DNA of 64,000 bases. It comes from Clostridiales bacterium. GTDB lineage: Bacteria > Bacillota > Clostridia > Christensenellales > Aristaeellaceae. Under the pieces are notes generated by a model that was not told where the DNA came from, did not search any database, and saw only the letters and a program-made list of their open reading frames with translations. Positions 6,118-17,677 of this stretch are shown here, piece after piece (the first letter of the stretch is position 1; the number at the start of each line of letters is the position of its first letter). The stretch spans positions 4,169 to 68,168 of the forward strand of contig SVGU01000002.1 of assembly GCA_015056155.1 (NCBI GenBank). The letters run 5' to 3'. A program made the position numbers and the translations under genes.

Positions 6118-6435
6118 GTCGCGCCGCGCCTGTCGCACGGCGTGACTCCCGCAAGGCAGCCGCCAAGCCACCCCCGCACCGCCCCACGCGAACGCAGCCC
6201 CAACCGAAGGCACACAGCCCGATCGCGCAGCGGGAGTCCAGAGAGGCTGTGTCCCTCTGGCGGGGCGCCGGGGCAGAGCGTCGCGCCGTGCCTGTCGCGC
6301 GGTGTGACTCCCGCAAGAAAGCCACCAAGCCGCACCGCTCCACGCGAACGCAGCCCCAACCGAAGGCGCGCAGCCCGATCGCGCAGCGGGAGTCCAGAGG
6401 GGCTGTGTCCCTCTGGCGGGGCGCCGGGGCAGAGC
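6118..6435. repeat. Tandem direct repeat, two copies of about 160 bp, non-coding
   Basis: Copy 1 is 6118-6279 and copy 2 is 6280-6435 (GTCGCGCCG.GCCTGTCGC.CGG.GTGACTCCCGCAAG...CAGCCCCAACCGAAGGC.C.CAGCCCGATCGCGCAGCGGGAGTCCAGAG.GGCTGTGTCCCTCTGGCGGGGCGCCGGGGCAGAGC). The copies differ by point changes and a 6-bp indel. Confidence 0.9.
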
Positions 6436-8732: not shown

Positions 8733-9640
8733 ACGCGATCCTGCTGAGCGGCGTGACCGGTCTGCTGCTGGGACTCCTGCTTCACTGGACGGGCTTCTCC
8801 CGGCCGGACGGGCTGCGTCAGGCGCTTGCCTTCCGCCGGGGCAGCTGCGTCCGAAGCGCCCTGTATGCCGTGGGGGCCGCCATGGCCATGACGGCGCTGC
8901 TATGCTGGCTGGCGGTGATCGACGTGGACGGGATCGCCGTGCTGCCCCTGTCCGGCGGGGCGCTCATCGGCGGAACAGTCTTCGGCATTGCGGCAGGGCT
9001 GTGCGGCTTCACACCGCTGACGGCCTTCGCCGGGCTGGGCGGCGGGGCTGCGCCGGAGGGGCTTTGCGCCATCGCCGGATGCCTGCTGGCCGGGCAGCTG
9101 CTGCCGCTGCTGGAGGGGCCGCTGTCCGCGCTGGGGCAGCTGCCGCCCCTGTCTGCCGCAACGGTCTTTGAGGTGACGCTGGACGAGCCGTTCCTGCTGG
9201 ACGGCGGCTTTCTGGGACAGGGCTGCGCGGGGCTGCTGCTGGCGGTGATCGCCGCGTGCATCCCCATGCCCCGGCCGCCCGTGGTCAGCAAGCCGGATAC
9301 GCCCTCCGAGCCCGACCCTGGCAGCATCGCAGAGGACGTCCCCGCGCCCGAAGCCGAACCGGACGCAGCTCCCGCCGCCGATGCAGAGGAGCCCCCGCCC
9401 GACCCGGCAGCGGAATCCCCCGCGCCGCTGCTCCTCCCCGCCGCCGCGCCGGAGGAGACCTTCATCGCCCTGCTCCCCGGCGAGGAGCCGCTGGTGGTGG
9501 ACACCCTCCTGGACGAGCCGCAGGAGGATCCCCCCACCTCGCCGGATGACCCGGAGTCTCCCGCCGCACAGGAACCGGATGAATCCCCCGCATCGCCCCC
9601 GCCGGACGAACCCAGCCCGGAGAACCGCGCCGAACCTTGA
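8729..9640 (+). CDS. YeeE/YedE-like membrane protein with a long Pro/Glu/Asp-rich C-terminal tail
   Basis: ATG 8729 after AAAGGAGG. Translation: MNAILLSGVTGLLLGLLLHWTGFS..LIGGTVFGIAAGLCGFTP.., followed by about 150 low-complexity residues (PSEPDPGS..PEAEPDAAPAADAEEPPPDP..SPPPDEPSPENRAEP). Confidence 0.6.
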   Translation: MNAILLSGVTGLLLGLLLHWTGFSRPDGLRQALAFRRGSCVRSALYAVGAAMAMTALLCWLAVIDVDGIAVLPLSGGALIGGTVFGIAAGLCGFTPLTAFAGLGGGAAPEGLCAIAGCLLAGQLLPLLEGPLSALGQLPPLSAATVFEVTLDEPFLLDGGFLGQGCAGLLLAVIAACIPMPRPPVVSKPDTPSEPDPGSIAEDVPAPEAEPDAAPAADAEEPPPDPAAESPAPLLLPAAAPEETFIALLPGEEPLVVDTLLDEPQEDPPTSPDDPESPAAQEPDESPASPPPDEPSPENRAEP

Positions 9641-9692
9641 CAGCCGCCGCGCGCTGGGGTATCATGACAGAAGACGAACAACGGAGGTCCCT

Positions 9693-12600
9693 ATGCAGAC
9701 CATATTCGAACACATCTGCCGCGAGCTGTCCCTGGGCTGCCTGACAGGCGAACCGAGGCAGCTCAGCGGCGGCTATACCCACCGCATGTACGCCTTGCCG
9801 ACCGGGCAGGGCCTGTTTGCCGTCAAGCTCCTGAACCCGGAGATCATGCAGCGCCCGGACGCGCCGGGCAACTACCGCCGCGCCGAGGCCTTCGAGCGTC
9901 TGCTGGAGGAGGCCGGGCTGCCCATCCTGCCCGCGCTGACCATCGGCGGCCGCAAGCTGCACTGCGTGGACGGGCAGTACCTCTACCTGTTCCCCCACTA
10001 CGCCGGGCATGTCCTGACTGACAGGGAGATCACCCCGGAGCACTGCCGGAGGATGGGCGGCGTGCTGGCACGCATCCACGCCTGCGCCGACCGGGAGCGC
10101 CCGGAGGAGGAGGACGCACCGCCCGCGCCCATCGACTGGGCAAAGCTGGCGGATACGCTCCTCGCCTGCCCCGCCGCCCGGGCTGAGGGCGAAAGGCTGC
10201 AGCAGGCGCTGCCCATGCTGACAGCCCTCACGGAGTCGGCCATCAGCGCCGCCCGCCGCCTTCCCCGCCGGGAAACGCTGTGCCACAACGACATGGACCC
10301 GAAGAACGTGCTCTGGCAGGGGGATGATTTCCGCATCATCGACCTGGAGTGCCTCGGATACGCCAACCCGCAGCAGGAGCTGCTCGACCTTGCCGTGACA
10401 TGGGCAGGGACGGAGGGGCAGGAGGCGCGGTTCAAGGCCTTTGTGAAGGGGTATTACGCCGCTGGCGGCAGCCCCGTCACCGATGCGGAGGTCTGCTGCG
10501 ACAGCCGCCGCAACGATCTGGACTGGCTGCGCTACTGCGTGCAGCGCGCCCTTTCCCCCGACCCGCAGGAGCGGCGCACCGGCCGGGAGCAGATCGCCCC
10601 GACTCTCGACCGGCTGGAGGACAGGCTGCACAGCCGGGAGTGCATCCTGCGCTGGCTCCGGGAGACGGAGGTGTACGGCCTGCAGCTGATCCACTACTGC
10701 CACCCGGACTGCGAGCCGCTGAAGAACATCATGCGCCTGCCTGAGGAAGAGGCCTTCCGCCTCGCCGCGGACATGGCACGCAAACACCCCGACGCCTCGG
10801 CCTTCTTCCGCTTTTCGGACTTTGACAGCTACTATCCGCGCCGGATGGAGGCGGACGGCATCCTCAGCGCCGCCTTCCGCGACCGTGGCGGACGCCCGGC
10901 GCAGGCGCATCCCCTCTCCTTCGCGCTGGAGGGCAGCGACTTCCTCGACGGCTGGTTCGACCGGGGGACGGTGCTGCGCCTGCCCCTCGCCTGCGTCCCG
11001 GAGGACCGGATCAGCTTCACCCTCGGCGACAGCCTCGGCATGCTCGACCGCACCGGCGGCTTCATCTTCCTCACCCTGCCGGAGCTGCTCAGCCGCATCC
11101 GCGCCCATCCCGAAGGGGCGACGGGCTTCCTGCGCGACATGAAGCAGCAGTACCGCTACATCGAGGCACAGCTATGGGACGACGCGCCCTGCCGGCACGC
11201 CCGGACGCTGCGGTCGGCAGAAAAATCCCCTCCGGCGATGAAACCTGATCCGCCTTTCGCACACTATATGGGCGAAGGGAGGGCGAAGACGATGCCCGAT
11301 ACGATCCTGACGGAGGCCTCCGGGCCGCTGTTCTACTTCTTCCTGCGCAAGACCGGCGACGCCTCCGCCGCCGAGGACCTCGCGTCGGACGTGCTGCTGG
11401 CGTTCCTTGCCGCCTGCCGGGCAGGCAGGGAGCTCGCGCATCCCCGCGCCTGGATCTGGCAGGTGGCGCGGAACCGGTATGCCGCATGGGCGCGGGACAG
11501 GCGCATCCGCCTGGAACAGGAGGTCTGCGGGGATGACGCAACCGCCGCGGCGGACGATGCCGACATGACCGCCGGGCTCCTGCAAAGGGAGGATGCGGCC
11601 CGTCTGCGGCGGGAGCTGGCCTTCATCCGCAGGGAATACCGCGAGGTGGTCGTCGCGCACTACATCGAGGATCGCTCCGTCGCCGACATCGCCCGGCGTC
11701 TCTCCCTTCCCGAGGGGACGGTCAAGACCCGTCTCCGCCGGTGCAGAAGCAAGATCAGGGAGGGAATGGATATGGCCCGAGAATTCGGCCCCCGGAGCTA
11801 CAACCCGGAAAACATGGACTTCGTCACCAGCGGCAACATGCCGTCATCGCTGCCGAACAGCGCCATGGCGCGCAAGCTGCCGCTCAACATCCTGCTGGAG
11901 GCCAGCGAGAACCCGTCCACCGTTGAGGAGCTGGCGATGGCGCTGGGTGTGGCGGTCCCCTACATGGAGGAGGAGGTGCGCCTGCTGGCGGACGCGACGC
12001 TCCTGCGGCAGTCGGGCGACCGCTATGTCACCGCCTTTTACATCATGGACGGCGAGACCGCCAGCCGCCTGCGCCGCACCCTGCGGGAAAACGCCGCCGG
12101 CCGCACAAAGGCCGTCCGCGCCATCGCCCTGGACATGCTGCCCCTCCTGCGGCAGCTCCACCCGGACAACGCCCGCCGCACGGACAACGACCTGCTCTGG
12201 TGGCTGCTGCCCCATGTGCACGAGACCGCCATGTTCTCCGACCCGCACTACGTCTGCGACTTCCCGGAGCGCAGCTGCGGCAGGAATGAGACCTGGGGCG
12301 TGGAGGGCTTCGAAAGGGTCGAGGACCCGGACTGGGAGCGCTGCCTGATGGGCCGCTGCCTGAATCAGCAGGACAACACCGCCTCCGGCCTGTACCAGTA
12401 CGACCATGAGTGCGAGGCCATGTGGAACCGCGCCGGCATCATGAACGGCCGCCAGGCCGCGCTGCTCGGCTCGCTCCTGCGCCAGAACCGCCCCCTCTCC
12501 GCCCTGACGGACACGGAGAAAGGCGTCTGGCAGACCCTCTGCGGCCGCTTCGCCCATGAGCAGGACGGGCATGCCGTGTCGGACGTCGTGGTGCTGCCCC

Positions 12601-12872
12601 GCGAAGGGCTGCAAAAGCTGGAGCGCGCCATCCGCGCCCATCCCTGCTACGCAGCCCTTGAAAACGCCGTCAAAGCGGATTTCGACCGCCTGCTGCGCGT
12701 GTTTTCCGCCATCCCCGGCGCGATCCTCCGGGAGCAGAAGAACTACGCCGCCTCCAACGAGATCTGCAACAGCCGCATGATGGTCCTCAACGACTGCCTC
12801 GCCGACGGCACCCTGACGCTACCTGCACAGCCGGAGAGCTCCACCGCCGGCATGTGGATCGAGCTGCGGTGA
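9693..12872 (+). CDS. Multidomain fusion ORF (1059 aa): APH-like kinase fold, unknown module, ECF-type sigma-70 factor, about 370-aa C-terminal extension
   Basis: ATG 9693 after GGAGG. There is no in-frame stop until 12870-12872 (the track ORF 9381..12872 is one continuous translation). The kinase fold shows SGGYTHRMY..FAVKLL..LCHNDMDPKNVLW (about 10281)..FRIIDLE. The middle module is YGLQLIHYCHPDCEPLKNIMRLPEEEAF... Sigma region 2 is DLASDVLLAFLAACRAG..WIWQVARNRYAAWARDRR. Sigma region 4 is REYREVVVAHYIEDRSVADIARRLSLPEGTVKTRLRRCRSKIREG. The long tail has a wHTH-like stretch, STVEELAMALGVAVPYMEEEVRLLADATLL. Confidence 0.7.
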   Translation: MQTIFEHICRELSLGCLTGEPRQLSGGYTHRMYALPTGQGLFAVKLLNPEIMQRPDAPGNYRRAEAFERLLEEAGLPILPALTIGGRKLHCVDGQYLYLFPHYAGHVLTDREITPEHCRRMGGVLARIHACADRERPEEEDAPPAPIDWAKLADTLLACPAARAEGERLQQALPMLTALTESAISAARRLPRRETLCHNDMDPKNVLWQGDDFRIIDLECLGYANPQQELLDLAVTWAGTEGQEARFKAFVKGYYAAGGSPVTDAEVCCDSRRNDLDWLRYCVQRALSPDPQERRTGREQIAPTLDRLEDRLHSRECILRWLRETEVYGLQLIHYCHPDCEPLKNIMRLPEEEAFRLAADMARKHPDASAFFRFSDFDSYYPRRMEADGILSAAFRDRGGRPAQAHPLSFALEGSDFLDGWFDRGTVLRLPLACVPEDRISFTLGDSLGMLDRTGGFIFLTLPELLSRIRAHPEGATGFLRDMKQQYRYIEAQLWDDAPCRHARTLRSAEKSPPAMKPDPPFAHYMGEGRAKTMPDTILTEASGPLFYFFLRKTGDASAAEDLASDVLLAFLAACRAGRELAHPRAWIWQVARNRYAAWARDRRIRLEQEVCGDDATAAADDADMTAGLLQREDAARLRRELAFIRREYREVVVAHYIEDRSVADIARRLSLPEGTVKTRLRRCRSKIREGMDMAREFGPRSYNPENMDFVTSGNMPSSLPNSAMARKLPLNILLEASENPSTVEELAMALGVAVPYMEEEVRLLADATLLRQSGDRYVTAFYIMDGETASRLRRTLRENAAGRTKAVRAIALDMLPLLRQLHPDNARRTDNDLLWWLLPHVHETAMFSDPHYVCDFPERSCGRNETWGVEGFERVEDPDWERCLMGRCLNQQDNTASGLYQYDHECEAMWNRAGIMNGRQAALLGSLLRQNRPLSALTDTEKGVWQTLCGRFAHEQDGHAVSDVVVLPREGLQKLERAIRAHPCYAALENAVKADFDRLLRVFSAIPGAILREQKNYAASNEICNSRMMVLNDCLADGTLTLPAQPESSTAGMWIELR
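11275..11294 (+). promoter_or_regulatory. Internal Shine-Dalgarno plus ATG in front of the sigma-factor module
   Basis: AAGGGAGGG (11275-11283), 8-nt spacer, ATG 11292, in frame with the upstream ORF. The about 75 nt before it have intergenic-like third-position composition, and both other frames carry TGA there. Confidence 0.5.
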
Positions 12873-12897
12873 ACACCCCGCCGCCGGAGGTCCAATA

Positions 12898-12926
12898 TTG
12901 ACAAATCACATTGTGTACTATATAAT
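12898..12926 (+). promoter_or_regulatory. Consensus sigma-70 promoter
   Basis: TTGACA (12898-12903), 17-nt spacer, TATAAT (12921-12926). Confidence 0.7.
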
Positions 12927-12961
12927 ATGAGCGCTGTATCCAATCCGGGTACAGCGCTCAT
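12927..12961. promoter_or_regulatory. Perfect 12-bp inverted repeat (operator or attenuator hairpin) overlapping the predicted transcription start
   Basis: ATGAGCGCTGTA-N11-TACAGCGCTCAT immediately after the -10 box, followed by ATTTTG. Confidence 0.5.
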
Positions 12962-12986
12962 ATTTTGCTGAAAGAAGGCGTCCCTC

Positions 12987-13475
12987 ATGAGAGATTTCTC
13001 CGTGAAAAAGCTGACCTTCGCCGGGCTGATGGCCGCGCTGATCTGCGTGCTGACGATGTTTCCGCACCTGCCGATCCCTGCGGGCTCCGGCTATGTCCAT
13101 CTGGGCGACGGCATGATCCTGCTGGCCGCGATGGTCGTCGGGCCGATGGCGATCCCCGCCGCAGCCGTCGGCAGCGCGCTGGCCGATCTGTTCTCCGGCT
13201 TTGCGCTCTATGCCCCCGCAACCTTCTCGATCAAGGGCCTCGTCGCGCTGATCGCCTGGCTCCTCTACCGCAAGGGCAGCATCCTCCGGACGGTCGTGGC
13301 CTTCCTGCTCGCCGAAGCGGCGATGGTCGCCGGTTATTTCGTGTTCGAGTGGTTCGTCGCCCGGGACTACGCCGTCGTGGACATCATCGGCAACACCATC
13401 CAGGGCGTCTCCGGCGTGGCGCTGGGCGTCGCCTTCACCTACGCCGTGCCCCAGCTGGAACGGGCGCTGAAGTAA
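12987..13475 (+). CDS. ECF-transporter substrate-specific (S) component, substrate unknown
   Basis: 162 aa with 5-6 TM segments. KKLTFAGLMAALICVLTMF..IPAGSGYVHLGDGMILLAAMVVGP.. is typical of solitary S components. No EcfA/T genes are nearby. Confidence 0.7.
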   Translation: MRDFSVKKLTFAGLMAALICVLTMFPHLPIPAGSGYVHLGDGMILLAAMVVGPMAIPAAAVGSALADLFSGFALYAPATFSIKGLVALIAWLLYRKGSILRTVVAFLLAEAAMVAGYFVFEWFVARDYAVVDIIGNTIQGVSGVALGVAFTYAVPQLERALK

Positions 13476-13517
13476 GGACTGCGCGCCCGCGTGCCGAAAC
13501 TGCACACATCAAAAGAG

Positions 13518-13560
13518 CCGCCGTTCCCGGTCGTCATTGAACCGGAAACGGCGGTTTTTT
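13518..13560. terminator. Bidirectional intrinsic terminator
   Basis: CCGCCGTTCCCGG (13518-13530) pairs with CCGGAAACGGCGG (13542-13554). AAAAGAG lies before it and TTTTTT after it. It sits between convergent genes. Confidence 0.7.
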
Positions 13561-13566
13561 CTGTAT

Positions 13567-14262
13567 TCATTTCTGATTTGCGGGGGAAAAGGGGCAGCGC
13601 ATTCCGATGCACTGGGCATTCATCGCGGAATACCGGCAGACTACCTGCCGCCGCGCCATCTCAACGCCCAGATGCTCTGCGGAGAATTCCACCGCCTGCT
13701 GAACGGACAGGAAGGAATCCCGCTTGCAGCACCGCGGCCCGCCGACCTCCCCGATGGCGTTCAGTGCCCGCGCCGTCATCCGGTGCGCAAGGGCGAAGGA
13801 TGCATCCGCCAGCGGCGTGGCGCCCGTGACGATGGACACGAACTGCCCCGCGCTCAGCCCTGCGCCGCACGCGCCCCAGAAGCCGCATGCCCCGCCGGGC
13901 ACCTGACCTCCCCGGGAGCACATCTCCCTGAGCGCCGCCGCCAGGTCGATCCTGCCGCCCGCGTTCCGGTAAGCCGTCAGCAGCGCCGCGCCGACCATGA
14001 TGTGATGCTCCGGGCCGTGCATGTGGCAGCATTCCAGCTGCATCAGCCGCTCCAGCACCGCCGCCGGGTCGCGGGACTCCTCCCGCAGGCACACCCCGAC
14101 GATGCTGTCCACGCCCTTTATGTGGCACGCATCGCAGACATAGTGTCCCTCGCTGCAGCGGGCCTTGCTGTGAAACGAGCCGCCGCACAGGGCGCAGGTC
14201 ATTTCCGCTCCCGCGTTCAGATACACCAGCGGCGCACCGCAGATCAGGCATTCTTCCGCCAC
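13567..14262 (-). CDS. Cys-rich metal-binding protein (DUF5714-like)
   Basis: Preferred start is GTG 14262 (GGAAGGAGG upstream). The track start 14319 would overlap the upstream gene. It contains an N-terminal CxxC..CxxC ribbon, HGPEHH, and many conserved-looking Cys. The family name is from memory. Confidence 0.6.
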   Translation of the reverse strand: MAEECLICGAPLVYLNAGAEMTCALCGGSFHSKARCSEGHYVCDACHIKGVDSIVGVCLREESRDPAAVLERLMQLECCHMHGPEHHIMVGAALLTAYRNAGGRIDLAAALREMCSRGGQVPGGACGFWGACGAGLSAGQFVSIVTGATPLADASFALAHRMTARALNAIGEVGGPRCCKRDSFLSVQQAVEFSAEHLGVEMARRQVVCRYSAMNAQCIGMRCPFSPANQK

Positions 14263-16688: not shown

Positions 16689-16754
16689 CAAGGGATTTCA
16701 TTCCCGCGCCCCTTTGGCGGGAGCTTTTCGGCTTGGTACTTCCGCCCGCATATA

Positions 16755-16785
16755 GAAAAACTCCGCATGAGCAAATCATGCGGAG
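16755..16785 (-). terminator. Intrinsic terminator after the P-loop kinase gene
   Basis: On the minus strand: CTCCGCATGA-tttgc-TCATGCGGAG followed by TTTTTC. Confidence 0.75.
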
Positions 16786-16793
16786 ATATTCAT

Positions 16794-17441
16794 TTACCGA
16801 TGAAGACCGAAGTGCCGCTCAACCAGTTCAACCGTCTTCTGCACGGTGCTGTCCGGCGTGCGCTCCAGCCAGAAGTATTCGCTGCGCTTAACGGCGCAAT
16901 AGAAGTCCGCATTCAGGCTGCGGAGGGTTTCGTTGCAGGTGGCCTTGGCCCTTTCCGGGTCAGACGCGCTGTTGATGAAGCGGTTGAACCCCTGATGATC
17001 AGGCCGGTTGCAGTAATCATCAATGATGTTGGACGGTTCCTTCAGCAGGAATACCACCCGGGCCGGATCCGTGAAGAGCCCGGCTTGCTCCAGCGTCAGA
17101 TGACAGTCGCACACCACGGGCCGGTCATGCGAAAGCCGGATCAGGTCCAGCAGCACAAAATCCAGCTGTTCCCTTGTGTTGTCAAGCAGCCATTTCCGGT
17201 ATTCCTCCACGCTTCGACCAAAGAATTCGTCAGCATCCCGGAAGTTTCTGTTCATCGCCGGCTGAAATGCCGGATCAGACAGTTGCCGGTGCCGGTCAAA
17301 CTGCTGGTCGATATCGAACAGCAGCAGATGATGGCGCTGCGCAAGAGCCCGGGAAATGGTGCTCTTTCCGCCGCAGGCAGTTCCGGTGACGAAAAACACA
17401 TTCTTCAAATACGTCTTGATAACATTGTTCTGAATATCCAT
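16794..17441 (-). CDS. P-loop NTPase / small-molecule kinase-like protein (AAA family)
   Basis: Start moved to ATG 17441 (GGAGGAAAGAATC-ATG). Walker A is VTGTACGGKST. The segment is visibly A+T-richer than its surroundings. Confidence 0.75.
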   Translation of the reverse strand: MDIQNNVIKTYLKNVFFVTGTACGGKSTISRALAQRHHLLLFDIDQQFDRHRQLSDPAFQPAMNRNFRDADEFFGRSVEEYRKWLLDNTREQLDFVLLDLIRLSHDRPVVCDCHLTLEQAGLFTDPARVVFLLKEPSNIIDDYCNRPDHQGFNRFINSASDPERAKATCNETLRSLNADFYCAVKRSEYFWLERTPDSTVQKTVELVERHFGLHR

Positions 17442-17635
17442 GATTCTTTCCTCCATTAAATAGTTTTGTGCGCAAAGTACATAAAACTATTTAACACAGT
17501 TTCATGTACTCAGAAGCTCCTGCGCAGCCTGATAACCATATCCCATACCTCCTCCGGTTTACTCACAGCCAGTATACCACTGCGCCCTTTTCTGCGTCAA
17601 GTTCACCTGCCGCACAACCAGCCCCGCAGGAGCAA

Positions 17636-17677
<42 letters not shown>

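Follow-up and report, generated by a model that had tools for sequence, protein, structure and literature searches.

Does the long open reading frame (ORF) in this 64,000-nucleotide stretch of Clostridiales bacterium DNA (contig SVGU01000002.1; hereafter the window) encode a sigma factor that is tethered to a kinase fold by design, or two neighbouring genes that have only recently run together? As a first-pass annotation made from the letters alone had seen, the frame is uninterrupted from ATG 9693 to the TGA at 12870-12872 (1059 codons), and it joins an APH-family (aminoglycoside/choline-kinase-like) phosphotransferase, a middle part referred to here as module X, and an extracytoplasmic function (ECF)-type sigma factor with a long C-terminal tail. 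That annotation had left two options, a recently lost stop codon and a deliberate design. Our comparison with relatives indicates that the fused ORF is likely the product of a recent, clone-specific one-nucleotide deletion which joined two adjacent genes, rather than an evolved regulator.

The decisive evidence comes from the junction. Clustered at 90% identity, the query falls together with split as well as fused proteins, and four close relatives from four other samples (L002, ERR15157040; L003, ERZ27227506; L004, ERZ28436052; L005, SRR22185096) share 95-97.5% nucleotide identity with the window. The only indel at the junction is in a run of C, reading AAAAATCCCCCTCC in all four relatives versus AAAAATCCCCTCC in the window. 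In the five-C relatives the upstream ORF stops at the TGA matching 11246-11248, and the sigma ATG follows 43 nt further; because one C is lost from CCCCC, the upstream frame of the window misses this TGA. When a single C is put back, the window again has an upstream ORF of 518 aa that ends in SGDET and a stop codon, which compares with the C-termini of the split proteins P0007 (518 aa) and P0006 (...RSAEKSPSGGET, then stop), and the N-termini of P0004 and P0005 (MPDTILTEASG...) match the window at its internal ATG 11292. Gene calls in the relatives have the same layout, with a 518-aa gene plus a sigma gene in L002, sigma genes starting MPDT... in L003-L005, and a 134-aa call ending ...SGGET in L004. 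The suspicion of a recent stop loss was essentially right, although the cause is a frameshift in the C-run that leaves the stop codon itself unmutated. Both other frames do hit TGA within 11215-11291, as had been pointed out. The C-run lies 16 nt upstream of the stop and 9 nt upstream of the -35 element of the sigma gene. The deletion leaves the promoter-like motif, the ribosome-binding site and the ATG unchanged and deprives the APH+X part of the chimera of only its last 5 residues.

More distant relatives extend this picture. In L092 (approximately 76% nucleotide identity, with an X protein 81% identical to that of the window), APH (325 aa), X (181 aa) and sigma (527 aa) are separate genes, the X gene overlapping APH by ATGA, and in the metagenome-assembled genome (MAG) lineage RGIG4686 (L006-L012, approximately 60% amino acid identity) a 322-aa APH gene with its own TAA is followed by X and then by a 526-aa sigma gene. 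An exhaustive HMMER search of 1.84 billion protein representatives returned 19,195 matches, and no protein among the best 150, which were inspected for this, spans both halves. The best match (P0018, 526 aa, 63% identity) aligns through its residues 1-525 to query residues 534-1058, followed by hundreds of sigma+tail proteins of 520-560 aa, APH proteins of 320-340 aa and X-APH proteins. In a word-indexed protein search with the full-length query, whose candidate collection saturated and which gave only the query's own cluster and P0002, the query's own sequence alone combines APH and sigma Pfam domains. All of the 22 sigma+tail proteins that we aligned begin at the internal methionine of the window or 10-30 aa earlier. 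The check proposed with the first-pass annotation, whether homologues are split near 10650 and 11290, gave a split at 11290 in every relative (4/4 close relatives, L092 and L006-L012) and a split at 10650 in L092 and L006-L012. From this distribution, the APH-X join near 10660 would be the older one, specific to this species and common to the window and L002, and the X-sigma join would be confined to the clone of the window. A deliberately kinase-tethered sigma factor does not agree with this result, since the fusion is confined to this assembly or clone and its close relatives keep the genes apart.

The stretch that would serve as a linker in the chimera (aa 508-533) looks like the control region of the sigma gene. 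Because the X gene of L092 stops at a TGA that aligns in frame with the TCG at 11214-11216, the segment 11214-11291 is, on this alignment, ancestrally non-coding, in agreement with the intergenic-like composition noticed earlier ahead of the sigma part. Its content is not that of coding sequence: it holds the ancestral stop, a promoter-like motif found across the family, and the canonical ribosome-binding site (AAGGGAGGG, then 8 nt, then ATG 11292) which the first reading had picked out. The arrangement TG(A/C)AAC-N17-CACTATA followed by a ribosome-binding site is common to the window, L092 and L008. For 77 family genes from species-representative genomes (L012-L091) we scored the preceding 250 nt for this motif. 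It reached at least 10 of 12 matches ahead of 73 of them, and its distance to the start mostly took one of a small set of values; at the same threshold the control scans gave 1/77 (reverse strand) and 0/77 (coding sequence). The family consensus is TGcAACCAAAT....AA...CCACACTATA (in short, TGcAAC-N17-CACTATA), and the copy at 11239-11268 is the sole one with at least 11/12 matches in the window, shuffled sequences giving none. The ECF promoters of Bacillus subtilis have tgaAAC as their -35 element, and autoregulation is typical of them (PMC5758882). The -35 half of our motif equals that of the B. subtilis promoters, whereas its -10 half is CACTATA and not CGTA or CGTC. The motif is probably the sigma gene's own, autoregulated promoter with an unusual -10 element, as predicted from these similarities.

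From these observations the following course of events can be proposed. In the native layout three cistrons would be neighbours, one for the kinase of APH type, one for the small protein X, and one for a sigma factor of ECF type that carries a long extension at its C-terminus. A first join, which relatives at 95% nucleotide identity share, would have merged APH and X of this species into a single gene of 518 aa. In a second join, one clone would have lost a C (CCCCC to CCCC, 11227-11230), so that the upstream frame reads past its TGA and through 45 nt of spacer, in phase, into the sigma ORF. The sigma gene, with a transcript and a start codon of its own, probably continues to yield free sigma factor (526 aa); the chimera of 1059 aa would be produced only where ribosomes read through on messages from the upstream promoter at 9637-9665. 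The fusion would then be a very recent and probably neutral or mildly harmful mutation at strain level, and the comparisons made here give no sign of selection for the tether.

Fusions of adjacent, co-oriented genes by frameshift or stop loss are common, both as lesions at strain level and as artefacts of metagenome assembly. The present case resembles them in resting on a homopolymer indel of one base shortly ahead of a stop, in its restriction to one clone, and in the unrelated lesions that relatives carry in the same genes. It differs from them in that neither half is truncated and the promoter-like motif, ribosome-binding site and start of the downstream gene persist, and because these are retained the downstream function is probably untouched.

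The alternative that survives best is that the missing C is a homopolymer sequencing or assembly error and the genes are separate in the organism. It would be compatible with a difference of a single base in a C-run, with the sequence identity of the fused contigs, which could stem from related data sets, and with single-base homopolymer indels in other assemblies of the locus, e.g. GGGG/GGG at 12295 in L003. The fused protein is, however, encoded on three Joint Genome Institute (JGI) contigs (20,456 nt, 81,533 nt, and one of 50-200 kb) and on the 68,759-nt contig with the NCBI MAG protein, and the same C4 in at least four assemblies is evidence against a one-off assembly slip. A run of four or five C is moreover short for a systematic short-read error, and the fused haplotype has single-nucleotide polymorphisms of its own adjoining the indel (GAT in the window vs GGT in the relatives at 11235), as a real allele would. 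Weighing these points, we regard an error as rather unlikely and the C4 allele as probably real. Two observations weigh against our main explanation. Over 15,180 nt the contig L001 matches the window at 100% identity, so the fused contigs all appear to be one clone, and the allele lacks support from a diverged genome; in addition, three lineages retain APH, X and sigma as a trio although their flanking genes differ.

Two further possibilities seem improbable to us: that the C4 allele is both real and expressed as a chimera beside the free sigma factor, i.e. a multidomain regulator caught at birth, or that the retained trio reflects a true coupling of the kinase/X pair to this sigma subclade. 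Still less probable is a selected design, in which a sigma factor gated by a small molecule or by phosphorylation is tethered to the APH kinase fold, as the first-pass annotation had envisaged. The ORF is intact, both halves are under purifying selection (see below), the gene order persists despite different flanks, and control of ECF sigma factors by kinases or by fused extensions has precedents (PMC7826278), all of which would fit such a design. Against it stand the lack of a fused orthologue among relatives ranging from 95% nucleotide to 60% amino acid identity, all of which are split, a linker made of translated promoter, untranslated region and ribosome-binding site, the presence of APH or X at a distance of up to 5 kb in just 1/80 family loci of species-representative genomes (the closest, L012), and a kinase of APH type rather than a serine/threonine protein kinase. 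Finally, a programmed switch at the C-run, by slipped-strand phase variation or by +1 ribosomal frameshifting on CCC-U that toggles between separate and fused products, seems very improbable, for although the indel sits in a homopolymer and a +1 slip of tRNA-Pro from CCC to CCU on the C5 allele would enter the sigma frame, four or five C are far below known phase-variable tracts, just two states occur and are strictly haplotype-linked, neither L092 nor L008 conserves the tract, and no stimulatory element is evident.

Comparison with known regulatory systems places the two genes separately. ECF sigma factors with fused C-terminal regulatory extensions represent the second most common mode of ECF regulation, e.g. 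ECF41, ECF42 and ECF56 (PMC7826278). The sigma gene on its own resembles these, consisting of sigma2, sigma4 and an extension of approximately 370 aa kept in hundreds of homologues, with an upstream ECF-like promoter motif as is typical of autoregulation; it departs from them in an extension made of a winged helix plus an unmatched domain instead of SnoaL, TPR or Cys-rich domains, and in a -10 element that reads CACTATA and not CGTx. In ECF factors regulated by serine/threonine kinases (ECF43 and related; PMC7826278), the likeness lies in a kinase-fold gene directly upstream, in an order kept in three lineages. Unlike ECF43, where a Pkinase-family kinase is conserved near the sigma gene, the kinase here is a small-molecule phosphotransferase of the APH/choline-kinase type, and the neighbourhood is absent from 79/80 other family loci. 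N-terminally extended sigma factors are known as well (the BldN pro-sigma; the long sigmaR/SigH isoform), in which the extension alters stability or needs processing (PMC7826278). The chimera, if made, would likewise be an ECF sigma factor with an extra N-terminal polypeptide, but its extension comprises 533 aa of an unrelated enzyme and translated intergenic DNA, is not conserved and bears no sign of selection.

Substitution patterns indicate that both genes are functional. Ratios of nonsynonymous to synonymous substitution rates (dN/dS) between the window and L002-L004 are 0.10-0.59 for APH+X, where the value of 0.59 rests on just 14 substitutions, and 0.14-0.25 for sigma, and because they are 0.10-0.35 for both genes against most relatives, both genes are, by this measure, functional and under purifying selection. 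The sigma gene of L005 (967-2030 of that contig) has two nonsense codons and a 530-nt deletion, with a dN/dS of 0.64, the sigma tail of L003 carries a GGGG to GGG frameshift (L003 position 2009, equal to window 12295), and X is frameshifted in the three RGIG4686-lineage contigs that we read (L006-L008, 5355-5908). Since relatives carry such independent lesions, single-base lesions are common in this cassette, whether biological or technical, and point either to a cassette that often decays or to noise in the assemblies. The coordinates of the features are collected in Table 1.

Table 1. Positions of the elements of the APH-X-sigma locus in the window and the basis of each assignment
Feature	Position	Strand	Basis
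Sigma70-like promoter-like site of the APH+X gene, TTGACA-17-TATCAT	9637..9665	+	11/12 matches; 0.3 sites expected in shuffles
GGAGG ribosome-binding site	9683..9687	+	5 nt ahead of ATG 9693; read from the sequence
APH-family (aminoglycoside/choline-kinase-like) phosphotransferase domain, aa 1-322	9693..10658	+	Pfam PF01636, motifs, standalone orthologues ending here with their own stop (322 aa in L006-L010, 325 aa in L092)
Module X, aa ~327-507, domain of unknown function, APH-fused in this species	10671..11213	+	63 homologues, L092 gene, structure model
Former intergenic DNA read as linker, aa 508-533 (SAEKSPPAMKPDPPFAHYMGEGRAKT)	11214..11291	+	comparison with relatives
C4 run, site of the 1-nt deletion making the fusion	11227..11230	+	C5 in 4/4 close relatives
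ECF-type promoter-like element, TGAAAC-N17-CACTATA	11239..11268	+	family motif, 12/12
TGA at which the APH+X gene stops ancestrally, not in frame in the window	11246..11248	+	relatives P0006 and P0007 end ...EKSPSGGET, then stop
AAGGGAGGG, ribosome-binding site of the sigma gene	11275..11283	+	8 nt, then ATG 11292; kept in L002, L003, L092 and L008
Sigma gene proper, 526 aa	11292..12872	+	sigma2 11328-11504, sigma4 11631-11762, extension 11772-12869

As for the upstream end of the fused ORF, the same frame is already open from ATG 9381, i.e. for 104 further codons (9381-9692), and the NCBI MAG protein MBE5795843.1 (P0003, 1163 aa) is annotated from there as "sigma-70 family". We rejected this start, as it overlaps the preceding gene and 9693 has a promoter-like site and a ribosome-binding site. 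Since the preceding gene ends at 9640 and ATG 9693 is equipped with both elements, the latter is a credible start of the upstream gene on sequence grounds, and the 1163-aa annotation is probably over-extended, resembling a start-site over-call in GC-rich DNA. The kinase motifs seen in the N-terminal part at first pass are present (CHNDMDPKNVLW, the catalytic loop HNDMDPKN of the form HxDxxxxN, and the metal-binding-Asp motif IIDLE of the form IDxE/IDxD), and Pfam APH (PF01636) matches aa 22-254 with an E-value of 2e-21 and 77.3 bits against a cut-off of 23.2. The catalytic-loop and Asp motifs are also kept in P0002, L006 and L092. The APH part lacks a closely related characterised homologue, and a sequence search of the PDB with it gave no match at E<=0.001; an Rfam scan of 9000-13600 gave nothing credible. 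In the rest of the ORF, Pfam has no match at aa ~325-533, which bears out the unassigned middle module, or at aa 694-1059.

Module X has 63 homologues (P0168-P0230), nearly all of which are standalone proteins of 173-189 aa without a Pfam domain, and its invariant motifs include HPLSF, SFTxGD and YIExQxWxD. Its structure is predicted with confidence (predicted local distance difference test, pLDDT, 95); the PDB sequence search was empty and the fold search gave no significant PDB match. An assignment as ADP-ribosyltransferase was considered and set aside, the fold matches to SopF and DarT1 being weak (E 0.11 and 7.5), a lead and not an assignment. The permuted order X-APH occurs in P0002, X-APH-DUF3795 proteins also occur, and an X homologue at 54% identity lies in an unrelated gene context. 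Because X adjoins APH kinases or is fused to them in both orders, X and APH form, as far as these arrangements indicate, a recurrent pair, to which sigma is merely a local neighbour.

For the sigma gene, the regions 2 and 4 and the tail of approximately 370 aa described at first pass are borne out by Pfam matches (Sigma70_r2 at aa 546-604 and Sigma70_r4/r4_2 at aa 647-690 of the ORF) and by the NCBIfam sigma70-ECF model TIGR02937 (66.5 bits against a cut-off of 42.9). The ORF has no Pfam match to Sigma70_r1 or r3, and the combination of sigma2, sigma4 and a superfamily-model match without region 1.1 or 3 is that of the ECF sigma factors (group 4). The best PDB matches of the sigma core are SigW, SigE, SigL and SigH, and native family members begin 10-30 aa ahead of region 2. 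The tail, a conserved extension of far more than 50 aa fused after sigma4, aligns across 22 family members with 30-63% identity, and in the structure model of the sigma protein (mean pLDDT 81.7) it is mostly above 90, consisting of a winged helix (sigma-protein residues ~195-250) and an alpha/beta domain of approximately 280 aa. The latter has no Pfam, PDB-sequence or PDB-fold match: a PDB search with the family profile matched the sigma core alone, and the fold search matched only the sigma core and the winged helix. In species-representative genomes, 532 confirmed loci encode ECF-type sigma factors of this family (approximately 520-560 aa) in gut and rumen Clostridia. The family of approximately 530 aa, sigma plus tail, is apparently uncharacterised.

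Several further features were observed in the window. A sigma70-type promoter without mismatches (TTGACA-17-TATAAT, 12898-12926) lies on the 3' side of the sigma gene, and directly after it come a GC-rich hairpin of 10 bp (12929-12959) and a stretch rich in T (region to 12969); promoter and hairpin precede the S-component gene of an energy-coupling factor (ECF) transporter (12987-13475), and Rfam has no match there. The region 12898-12969 could, judged from its layout, be a leader, an attenuator or the terminator of the sigma gene. Further downstream, approximately 930 nt of the window (16713-17646) are replaced by approximately 54 nt in the 98%-identical L003 (6426-6480), a strain-level indel. 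At 6118-6435, intergenic and upstream of a malic enzyme gene, there is a tandem duplication of two copies of a unit of approximately 156 nt (90% identical) without an Rfam match.

In conclusion, a clone-specific read-through fusion, or an error, is an ordinary event, and the striking "kinase-tethered sigma factor" in NCBI stems from one missing base and is not to be propagated as a new architecture. Beyond this caution, the locus yields by-products of modest value: a well-defined family motif, TGcAAC-N17-CACTATA; a large sigma factor family in which the two sigma regions are followed by an extension of a winged helix plus an unknown domain; and, in X, a confidently folding orphan domain of approximately 180 aa that is repeatedly paired with or fused to APH kinases.

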